Below are positions 27,201 through 30,084 of a stretch of 64,000 nt of DNA, piece by piece. Origin of the DNA: Hormiphora californensis (Eukaryota > Animalia > Ctenophora); assembly GCA_020137815.1 (NCBI GenBank), contig CM035351.1, positions 1,178,001-1,242,000 on the forward strand, in the 5' to 3' direction. The number at the start of each line of letters is the position of its first letter. The first letter of the stretch is position 1. The translations under genes and the position numbers were made by a program. The notes below the pieces were generated by a model. It made no database searches and was not told the DNA's origin. It was given only the letters and a program-made list of their open reading frames with translations.

Positions 27201-29002
27201 TATATCCTGCCCCCCCCTTGAATTCGCCAGCTCTCGTGACAACATGCTGTGAAGTGTAGATTTTCATGGTAACTATGGTAACCATGTGTTAAACTTACCT
27301 TGCTGTGGTCGATATTACGGACGTGTTTCTTTAGTCGATCCAGTAACACCTGGGAATTGTGTTGCCGTACCAGTCTCACCACAACGCAATGTCGCTGACC
27401 GTAGTTGCTCGCCCACGTTACAGACAAGGCATTGGGATAGGCGCTGCTTAACCGACAGTGAGCTGTTATGTCGATTGGTACTGATGGGGGCCGCTTCACG
27501 TTTGAGCTTTGAGGCTCCTGAAACTGTAATGGGAAGAGATGGTGTCAGATGGGAATATTGAATACAAAAAACACAATAAACAATATATCGAATTGATTGA
27601 TACATTTCAACTATTCTCCGTGAACATGAAGAAGTCAATCAATTTAGGGACAATATTCAACTACCAGTCACGTACGCTATAAGCTTGGCTTCCGTTAACT
27701 TTTAGGGATAGAAAAGCGGGGAAATGGTCCGCCTGCTCGCAACTGGTCTCCAAGAGACATAACCGAACTTGAATTTGTACCAGATAGTTGTAGGATATAA
27801 CATTGCCACCTTGTAGAGGCTGTATCGTTCTATTGGAGGGAGAGGGGGAGAGGTATTGTGTGAGAAAGAAAGAGGTATTCATTAAATTGGGGTCACTAAG
27901 CTAAGTGAGGGCTTTATAATGTAAAAAATATGCTAAATGTGTTTAAGAAAGATGGAGAGTCATAATAACCCCGCTGTGTAATACCTGCTATCGTACCTGC
28001 TATCGTATATGGCCTGGACTTGTCGTTGGCTCAGGTAGAAAGGTATTGTGGTCTCCTGATACCGACTGGGACCCTGATCCATCATGCTGGTGGGTTTAAT
28101 TAGGATATCTATCTCCTCGTAGAATGGCAGGTCCTTGAATGTTACGTCAGGTAACACTGGAACGTGTTGCTGGGGAGAGAAAAAGAGGAGATTTAATATA
28201 AAGGGTCATAAGTGGGGGGGGGGGGGAATGCAGAACAAAGGATTCATAATTTAGGGCCTAAAATTTAGGCCCTACATTTAACAACCTCCCCGGGGCTTAT
28301 TTACGGGTGTAACAATTCAATTGTAACATATGGATATTGAGGTGTACCTTGTCTGACGATGACTCTGAACCAGGGCTTACACCGTAACTCTTTCCTGAAC
28401 TTGTACCTAGAAGAGATTACATTTATCAGAATTTAGCAACTTCAACCTTAGATTCAGTTGGTTGCTATGAAATGGTTGCTACGGTATGGTTGCTACAGTA
28501 ATCAGTATGGTTGCTATGGTATAAGATATAACTGATGGATACCTGGTGCATTGAGGGAGGTGATAACAGTAGTAGTAGGATCTATGACACCCGCTTGCCG
28601 AGGTGGATATCTCCGGTTGTAGATATCTCGTATCGAGTTGGCCACCTTACAATCCTTCGTATCCGAATTATTCTTGATCAGATTTAGGGCCCGCGATTGG
28701 AGTTCCTGTTTCTTCCCAACACGTGACCGGTTACATGTCATCATTAGCATTTGGAGCTCCTGTACTCGGAAACTGTTCACCATTCGCTGAGAGACAGGGA
28801 TGGGGGTCAGTGATAGTTGCGGCGGCTGAAGTAGTACTGAATGGTAGGAGGGATAGTTTTAATTGGTAATAATCAAGGGGTTTAAACTCACAGGAAGGGA
28901 GGTTTGGGGTCCCGTAGTTGCTGAGTGAAGATAGTCTGAACTTACCCTAAGGACTTCTTTCTCGATTCCTTGGTTGCTCATTGCACCACGCTTATCTGAC
29001 AT
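20774..29002 (-). CDS. PIAS: PIAS-family SUMO E3 ligase (SAP, PINIT, SP-RING), multi-exon
   Basis: Exons 28946-29002 (MSDKRG...), ~28543-28786 ([16 protein letters not shown]), ~28348-28407, ~27997-28170 ([11 protein letters not shown]), ~27675-27815 ([18 protein letters not shown]), ~27299-27522 ([17 protein letters not shown]), 26011-26171 ([42 protein letters not shown]), ~25110-25302 ([14 protein letters not shown]), ~24757-24869, ~21621-21703 (SIM-like [11 protein letters not shown]), ~21352-21453, last exon ~20774-20986. Confidence 0.93.
22025..22350. repeat. (GA)n microsatellite; others at ~11158-11312, 15410-15490, 16180-16290, 24075-24280, 33645-33780, 34895-34990, 46655-46730, 56838-56935, 58412-58460
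   Basis: Directly visible; source of the SLSL/ERER ORFs in the track. Confidence 0.97.
22585..24000. repeat. Two diverged ~140-bp copies (22585-22725, 23866-24000), each with three GACAAAAGGCAGTA motifs, in a PIAS intron
   Basis: Direct comparison of the two stretches. Confidence 0.7.
25303..25790 (-). repeat. C-rich ~32-bp tandem array plus a duplicated PIAS acceptor and exon start (25412-25468)
   Basis: Units CTCTCCCCCTCTATAACCCCTCCCCCTGACAA; second CTCCAG|ATGAACGAAAAGAAAGCAACGTGGCAGTGT upstream of the real exon. Confidence 0.85.
26294..27200. mobile_element. 907-bp non-autonomous DNA transposon with ~190-bp TIRs, TA(TA)-flanked, Tc1/mariner-type ends
   Basis: TATA|TTAGGTCATTCGGTAAATATCTGG...CCAGATATTTACCGAATGACCTAA|TATA; arms 26294-26483 and 27011-27200. 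Confidence 0.88.
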
Positions 29003-29231
29003 GTGGGTTATCACCTAAACTGTGAAGTAAAGAGATAAAGAAACTGTTGTTGGGCAAATAAAAAGGCAAACGTTATTAGCATTAAAACTAACCACATAAC
29101 TGGTATACAATTGTGAGATTCCTAATGTTGGTTAAAAAACCCGACTGTAAGGGGTAAACATTCACACACTCTAGATTCTAGGTAATGAAAATTAAGAAAA
29201 ATGAAAAATATTGACTGGCTAATGACAATGT

Positions 29232-29556
29232 CTATTTCTTTAGTGAGCACTGGGTAGTAACTCCCAGTGCACTGAAACCCCCAGGACACACAACGGTCAG
29301 GTCTGTAAAGTTGGTCAGCAACTCCCCAACCGCAGTAGCTCGTTTCCCAGATCCGCAATGAACTAGACACTTCTTATCCTTGATGTCCTCCAGCTCAGCT
29401 ACTTTCTCGGGGTGCTGGTGGAGTGAATCGATATGTCGGACAGAGGGGAGTTCTAGGTGACCCGGCATCCCACTCTTTCTGGGTCCGGACATCAATGATG
29501 ACATCAAATGTAGATAGCAGGGGTTTAGCTTCTTCAGCGGATAGAACTTTAGGCAT
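29232..29556 (-). CDS. Single-domain rhodanese/sulfurtransferase (~107 aa), intronless, one apparent extra base near 29461
   Basis: ATG 29556 gives MPKVLSAEEAKPLLSTFDVIIDVRTQKEWDAG; after removing one G it continues HLELPSVRHID...CLVHCGSGKRATAVGELL...VCPGGFSAL. Motifs IDVRxxxEWxxGH, CxSGxR and GGF are present. Confidence 0.85.
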
Positions 29557-30058
29557 GGCTATTGAAAACTGAGGGTATGATCGTTAAGGGTTGTTTTGAA
29601 TAGTCCATCACATCGGCTCTATGATTAATAGGGTTCATGCGCTTTGCAGGAAGAATGTAAGAACTTGCATGCTCAGTAGTATAAAACGGGAGAAACTCTT
29701 TCTCCAACAGATCATCTTGAAATCTATCAAGAATGTACGCCATACACTGCACTTTCTCACTAACTTTCGAGGAGGTTCACAGTCAACACTCAGTACGGTT
29801 ATAATAGTCAGGATACCCCTCCAGTATGTCCAGTAAATTCAACTCCTCCTGGTTAACCTCATAGACCTCCCCTCGGACTTGGTAACCCGTCCCTACTTTT
29901 GGTAGCAGGTAGGGGATGTGACAACTTGATCCAATCACTAATGGCAACTTGTATGCCAGCTGGCCGTCGCCAACAATTTTAAGGTCTTTGGTCAGATGAC
30001 TGTTTGGGTAGCCCCGCTTCAGGGTTCCATAGACAAAAACTCGAAAAATCTGGCTCAT
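29549..30058 (-). CDS. GGACT: Gamma-glutamylamine cyclotransferase-like (GGACT/AIG2-like), intronless; two in-frame TGA at 29777-29785 are probably compensating indel errors
   Basis: MSQIFRVFVYGTLKRGYPNSH...VRGEVYEVNQEELNLLDILEGYPDYYNRT, continuing in the same frame as VQCMAYILDRFQDDLLEKEFLPFY. Confidence 0.88.
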
Positions 30059-30084
30059 TTCTGTCAATTTCAAAACTTTACTTC

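Follow-up and report, generated by a model that had tools for sequence, protein, structure and literature searches.

A candidate operon of GGACT, rhodanese and PIAS genes in the ctenophore Hormiphora californensis, with a possible fusion of the first two

Results

The window analysed here, 64,000 nucleotides (nt) of the genome of the ctenophore Hormiphora californensis (NCBI GenBank assembly GCA_020137815.1, contig CM035351.1, positions 1,178,001 to 1,242,000), contains a compact cluster of three units on the minus strand: a GGACT domain, a rhodanese and a PIAS SUMO ligase, with ATGs at 30058, 29556 and 29002, respectively (Table 1). A first-pass annotation had read the cluster as an operon of three unrelated genes, with one precursor resolved into three mRNAs by spliced-leader trans-splicing. 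The tight arrangement itself was borne out: in Pfam the units match GGACT (PF06094, E 1e-17), Rhodanese (PF00581, in two pieces) and the SAP and zf-MIZ families of PIAS, and the rhodanese stop at 29234-29232 lies 229 nt from the PIAS ATG. RNA evidence was taken from assembled short contigs of four public runs (X1-X4), three of them with a small share of the stretch; 18 contigs were aligned on 25800-31200, and the runs were also aligned on a control region (1-3300). The whole-exon matches of PIAS are 96-100% identical to P0176, a Pleurobrachia bachei gene model from EukProt, which places the window very close to Pleurobrachia. Two cis introns of PIAS are joined in X2 contigs, and its predicted 3′ exons were placed from open frames.

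Table 1. Coordinates of the cluster, its putative signals and the control pair in the window.
Feature	Position	Strand	Remarks
CpG/CGCG-rich block, likely bidirectional promoter	30780..30980		Cluster on minus, Smad gene on plus; promoter function putative
LINE-like insertion, 5′-truncated, 516 nt (30081-30596)	30072..30605	+	9-nt target-site duplications at 30072-30080 and 30597-30605
GGACT AG, 2 nt before ATG	30061..30062	-	52.8th percentile, chance level
GGACT (gamma-glutamylamine cyclotransferase) domain, single exon	29600..30058	-	PF06094; 129/143 residues identical to the P. bachei model
GGACT-rhodanese junction, likely translated linker	29557..29599	-	Branch-like CTTAAC at 29588-29583; AGs at 29570-69 and 29560-59
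Rhodanese domain, single exon	29232..29556	-	PF00581; start agrees with orthologs P0019-P0022
Rhodanese-PIAS spacer, 216 nt	29016..29231	-	Rhodanese 3′ untranslated region to at least 29154, then T-rich tract
Tandem PIAS acceptors, AG 29021-20 and AG 29016-15	29015..29021	-	29020: 99.5th percentile; 29015: 92.1st percentile
PIAS SUMO ligase gene, multi-exon	20774..29002	-	SAP, PINIT, zf-MIZ
Control pair	1..1600	-	CpG block 1400-1600; NDUFAF3/DUF498 1309-719; 112-nt spacer; ATP5PO/OSCP ATG 596; Pfam

In its literal sequence the window carries two in-frame TGA codons in GGACT and a frameshift in rhodanese, both overlooked previously. Frame-aware alignment to P0176 placed single extra bases near 29794, 29784 and 29762 in GGACT and near 29463 in rhodanese, and seven extra bases at the junction of the two, which are best read as a 6-nt in-frame difference plus one extra base. 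The extra base in rhodanese (29461-29464) is absent from two X1 contigs and one X2 contig, and the three events in GGACT sum to +3, so that the frame is restored. All five events are +1 and none is -1 (p 0.06, taken alone, against equal insertions and deletions). This pattern suggests a poorly polished consensus, in which the five extra bases would be errors.

The model P0176 contains GGACT, rhodanese and PIAS in this order, without a stop between the first two, whose join lies within one exon. All 12 aligned residues of the junction linker are identical to P0176, which reads through in frame, and the rhodanese pieces are 90-98% identical to it. From the codon start to the rhodanese ATG, the X2 RNA allele has 12 nt and is in frame, versus 13 nt in the window, where the literal GGACT stop (29551-29549) depends on one extra base. 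As both the model and the X2 allele are in frame, the earlier view of GGACT and rhodanese as separate overlapping genes is probably mistaken, and the notion of three unrelated genes with three mRNAs is probably wrong for these two, which form one frame in the P. bachei model. The alignments would instead suit a putative fused GGACT-rhodanese mRNA and protein.

The GGACT homologs have their C-terminus at about residue 155 (median of 130), immediately ahead of the linker. A hidden GGACT stop at this position, considered on account of the homolog lengths, was dropped, as these linker residues are present in the P. bachei model as well. A micro-intron that would remove the GGACT stops was also ruled out, since homologs need the residues in question and the P. 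bachei model has them. Where the GGACT residues differ, window and model fit the homologs equally well (7 to 7, with 152 homologs length-filtered from 182 proteins), so the domain does not look decayed. No ctenophore GGACT ortholog besides P0176 was found, the best reaching at most 53% among the matches listed (18 and 150). The two domains occurred together in none of the 175 proteins compared, a search for longer proteins with 7547 candidates returned two matches, namely P0176 and a multi-rhodanese protein from an archaeon, and the protein atlas gave no usable match for the fused stretch.

Trans-splicing was observed most clearly at the control pair. At ATP5PO, contigs of X1 and X2, from two studies, follow the genome as far as AG 606-605 and then continue into tails of 24 and 26 nt, respectively. 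The reverse complements of these tails do not occur in the window; together with the AG they equal the last 28 nt of the published Hormiphora leader (PMC8527503). Leader trans-splicing in this ctenophore, as supposed in the first-pass annotation, thus takes place within the window, and its target is the downstream member of a tight pair, as seen in two of the four runs. At NDUFAF3, an X1 contig extends 30 nt beyond the candidate AG without a tail. X3 provided no contig on 1-3300; from X4, a single divergent contig aligned there and none aligned on the cluster. The pair NDUFAF3-ATP5PO, two single-exon mitochondrial respiratory genes, is in itself a cleaner operon candidate than GGACT-rhodanese-PIAS.

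In the cluster, an X2 contig (record 12; 151 nt, depth 2) spans the rhodanese start and carries an 11-letter tail from AG 29570-29569. Read in the mRNA sense, the genomic AG is kept and the sequence upstream of it differs, which results in TTTGAG; TTTG precedes only 46 of the 9120 AGs in the window. The leader-like tail is good, if single, evidence for a leader at rhodanese. A leader joined at 29558 had been predicted; the prediction agrees with the presence of the tail and not with its position, as the join at 29569 is 10 nt upstream of the proposed site at 29559. No TTTGAG exon end with a donor was found upstream within the cluster (the best candidate is 34 kb away and has one mismatch), and the leader exon was not found in the window. 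Rhodanese RNA extends to at least 29154 (X1 record 3, 29154-29363), so that about 135 nt remain before the PIAS acceptor. Among the contigs aligned on 25800-31200 none shows a leader at PIAS, and X2 also contains unspliced PIAS contigs. In the four runs, no contig covers GGACT at 29601-30100 and none crosses the rhodanese-PIAS or the NDUFAF3-ATP5PO spacer, although such holes in contig data prove nothing.

Acceptor strength was scored with a matrix of 17 cis acceptors of the window (7 from RNA joints or loose ends and 10 inferred from exon edges) and ranked against 7921 background AGs. An acceptor had been noted just upstream of each ATG, and AGs are indeed present at 30062-61 (GGACT), 29560-59 (rhodanese) and 29016-15 (PIAS). 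The AGs are strong before PIAS and before rhodanese, where 29569 ranks at the 96.6th and 29559 at the 93.6th percentile, while the GGACT AG is at chance level. Among random ATGs, 111 of 1948 (about 6%) have an AG scoring at least 1.5 within 20 nt.

The base composition differs strongly between the start of the cluster and its spacer. The block at 30780-30980 stands out (21.9 CpG per 200 nt, 11 CGCG/GCGC; window median 5, 95th percentile 12) and has 8-mers in common with the block upstream of NDUFAF3. It had been described as the only CpG-rich promoter-like block, which holds within the cluster; in the window it is one of 15 CGCG/GCGC peaks. The rhodanese-PIAS spacer has a G+C content of 0.31, a T content of 0.43 and 1.9 CpG per 200 nt, and the NDUFAF3-ATP5PO spacer has a G+C content of 0.29 and 1.8 CpG per 200 nt. 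Both spacers are thus AT-rich, T-rich and CpG-poor, and both units begin behind a CGCG-rich block. The canonical AATAAA was not found in the rhodanese-PIAS spacer, where AATAAC is present at 29077. Such a spacer before PIAS would be compatible with an intercistronic region and, with composition as a proxy, a single promoter with none inside the cluster may be proposed.

A metagenome scan yielded three related loci (L001-L003) among 181 pattern matches. In each of them the rhodanese is a gene by itself, a stop precedes its start by 10-17 codons, and neither GGACT nor PIAS was found in the sequenced DNA around it. Synteny in relatives, a check named in the first-pass annotation, is absent at these loci. 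The solitary rhodanese indicates that the fusion is derived. A strong AG directly precedes the rhodanese ATG in L002 (97.6th percentile) and L003 (96.1st), while in L001 the AGs rank at the 55th-72nd percentile and the best lies 64 nt upstream. The gene order would therefore be young and the acceptor older than the fusion. In L002 (174-1145) the rhodanese is followed by a 453-nt CpG-poor spacer and a cyclophilin on the same strand, that is, a tight pair with a different partner; the cyclophilin acceptor ranks at the 68.6th percentile. In L003, a patch lying 500-650 nt upstream of rhodanese is modestly rich in CpG.

The earlier annotation had overlooked an insertion, which resembles a long interspersed nuclear element (LINE) and ends about 10 nt upstream of the GGACT AG. 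Its open reading frame is 32% identical over 114 amino acids (aa) to an element at 62014-62994; Pfam gave no match for this frame, and the protein atlas search returned unnamed clusters only. We call it LINE-like on the basis of a reverse-transcriptase C-terminal motif and of this similarity. The insertion may be polymorphic. An X1 contig at 30103-30578 was set aside as a sign of read-through because it lies wholly inside the insertion and another copy could be its source.

Several further observations concern PIAS and the neighbouring genes. In PIAS, an exon start of 17 residues is present twice on the minus strand (25400-25520 and 25135-25310) in a repeat-rich intron, a partial exon duplication. 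Dense plus-strand T>C changes (A>G in the mRNA sense) at 26297-26526 and 26957-27091 have the look of adenosine-to-inosine hyper-editing; the candidate hyper-edited contigs, from X1 and X3, cover an inverted repeat within a PIAS intron. On the other side of the CpG block, a divergent Smad gene, likewise overlooked before, lies on the plus strand, with MH1 at 32100-32345. It spans 31765-48613; MH1 is represented by pieces at 32100 and 38644, and pieces of MH2 occur twice (43332; 46855-48613), which suggests duplicated MH2 exons or a second gene; copies of an inverted repeat lie within this region at about 43900-45100. Between PIAS and NDUFAF3, on the same strand, lies an IQSEC/Sec7 gene (1930-18250, minus); the 579 nt upstream of its putative first exon contain no CGCG block. 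An endophilin-like BAR-SH3 gene (59335-61972, minus) adjoins a LINE-like frame of 327 aa (62014-62994).

Discussion

Our leading explanation, which we hold only tentatively, is a one-promoter precursor of GGACT, rhodanese and PIAS with a fused first frame, in which internal leader joining yields rhodanese alone and a further leader addition releases PIAS. A single promoter at about 30.8-31.0 kb would drive one precursor RNA through all three units. If the junction is left unspliced, a GGACT-rhodanese protein of about 275 residues would be made, and if the leader is joined at the junction, rhodanese, of about 107 residues, would be made alone and the GGACT part discarded. PIAS would then be released when the RNA is cleaved behind rhodanese and a leader is added at 29020 or 29015, about 215 nt past the stop. 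Historically, a two-gene operon may have lost its upstream stop, by which the old intercistronic acceptor became part of a translated linker and is still a splice site. Rhodanese has its own stop and 3′ untranslated region; GGACT probably lacks a stop and 3′ end of its own, and for this reason we do not class the first pair as two cistrons. The shared precursor and the leader addition at PIAS are suggested by spacing, composition and the control pair. The gaps of 229 nt (rhodanese stop to PIAS ATG) and 112 nt (control pair) are both below the 250-bp cut-off used for chaetognath operons, as given in the sections consulted of PMC12460157.

A number of points weigh against this explanation. The evidence for the rhodanese leader comes from a single contig (151 nt, depth 2) of a run with guessed RNA status; its tail matches only 6 of the last 8 letters of the leader, and the contig presupposes an allele that lacks one base of the window immediately behind the AG. 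Another X2 contig (record 11) is unspliced across the PIAS acceptors to 29035, with 8 differences from the window. The model P0176 is automatic and chimeric, with repeated PIAS pieces and predicted splices into GGACT and out of rhodanese, and automatic gene models are known to fuse operonic genes, as noted in part of PMC7986045. Compared with P0176, GGACT diverges faster than rhodanese (14/143 versus 1/75 residues, p 0.02) and has the LINE-like insertion just upstream, and the five +1 events alone give only the p of 0.06 quoted above. The order GGACT-rhodanese-PIAS is not kept in the three metagenomic loci. Finally, acceptors in front of an ATG are nothing unusual in ctenophores, in which the leader is present on at least 56% of long reads according to the available part of PMC8527503. 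As a mark of an operon, the use made of them in the first-pass annotation, such acceptors fail in this group, and only the spacing argues for an operon.

The strongest competitor gives PIAS a CpG-poor promoter of its own in or near rhodanese. PIAS would then be a single trans-spliced gene with a short outron, GGACT-rhodanese would behave as described above, and the packing would reflect a compact genome. It fits this view that most ctenophore mRNAs bear the leader whatever the layout, as the same part of PMC8527503 indicates, that the 579 nt preceding the putative first exon of IQSEC are likewise free of a CGCG block, that an unspliced contig crosses the PIAS acceptors and that the gene order is not kept in L001-L003. 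However, a promoter would have to be accommodated in at most about 135 nt between the rhodanese RNA (29154) and the PIAS acceptor, which are AT-rich and without CpG, and the same design recurs at NDUFAF3-ATP5PO and, with its 453-nt CpG-poor spacer, at the rhodanese-cyclophilin pair of L002. We consider a separate PIAS promoter unlikely. Less likely again is that GGACT is dead in this haplotype through the insertion and real frameshifts, so that its sequence serves as a long outron before rhodanese and PIAS. The two in-frame stops, the insertion about 10 nt before the AG and the faster divergence than in rhodanese could be explained in this way, and coding stretches elsewhere in the window are without insertions or deletions relative to the RNA contigs. 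Against decay, the events in GGACT sum to +3, the event in rhodanese is contradicted by RNA and the substitutions are not biased away from the family.

The original proposal of three separate cistrons, with the GGACT stop overlapping rhodanese and a leader on each, takes the stop at 29551-29549 literally. It agrees with the end of GGACT homologs near residue 155, and spacer-less operons exist in Ciona, according to part of PMC7986045. We nevertheless regard it as improbable, because the frame is open across the junction in two other alleles, the GGACT acceptor is no better than chance and leader joining at 29569 would truncate GGACT ahead of its stop. The poorest prospect of all is a cis intron from GT 29092 to the PIAS acceptor, which would join a 5′ untranslated exon, or the rhodanese 3′ untranslated region, to PIAS without any leader. 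The GT at 29092 is donor-like and the known donors here are weak; at about 73-78 nt, however, the intron would be shorter than all 7 measured introns (98-178 nt), which makes this very improbable.

Beyond the precursor as such, we propose with slightly more reserve that ctenophores have leader-resolved operons, that the present one is becoming a fusion gene in which the former intercistronic branch point and acceptor are read as linker codons and the choice of trans-splicing decides between the fusion and free rhodanese, and that PIAS is the next cistron. Among animals, operons have been described in nematodes, tunicates, chaetognaths and Hydra. They had not been reported in ctenophores, a group with leaders, according to the available sections of a 2021 paper (PMC7986045), and the main text of the Hormiphora leader paper (PMC8527503) makes no mention of operons or polycistrons. 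No later report of ctenophore operons was found in the open-access literature searched, including the accessible sections of PMC13498776 and PMC10282587, and an 'alternative operon' as a concept was not found in the same literature. If the proposal is true, the presence of operons in ctenophores, the likely sister group of other animals, would help to answer whether every origin of leader splicing is followed by operons, and the fused junction would exemplify how an operon can turn into a fusion protein without loss of either product. Gene models of ctenophores that are fused, P0176 among them, would then mix real and false joins.

Several known systems, compared here from partial texts of the papers, resemble the cluster in different respects. 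The published ctenophore leader (PMC8527503) is identical to the ATP5PO tail over 28 nt. In the bicistronic RFC140-flp operon of Hydra (PMC3273482), unrelated genes likewise lie head to tail with a short T-rich spacer, and the leader is found on the downstream gene and optionally on the upstream gene. Unlike the present case, that operon is proven by transgenes, has no fused frame and belongs to another phylum. In Ciona and Oikopleura (PMC7986045) and in chaetognaths (PMC12460157), one leader similarly serves single and operonic genes, the gaps range from zero to less than 250 bp and operons are called from spacing and leader reads; there the upstream gene keeps its own end, whereas here the first two genes are likely one frame. 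For the junction, the nearest parallel is sma-9/schnurri of Caenorhabditis elegans (PMC2904332), which gives a full-length product or, via internal leader addition, a C-terminal one. In sma-9, SL2 is added at an exon boundary of an old gene, whereas the acceptor here is internal to a single exon and marks the seam between two genes found separately in relatives. At the present locus, the short form is represented by one contig and the long form by the P. bachei gene model, with the window one base out of frame.

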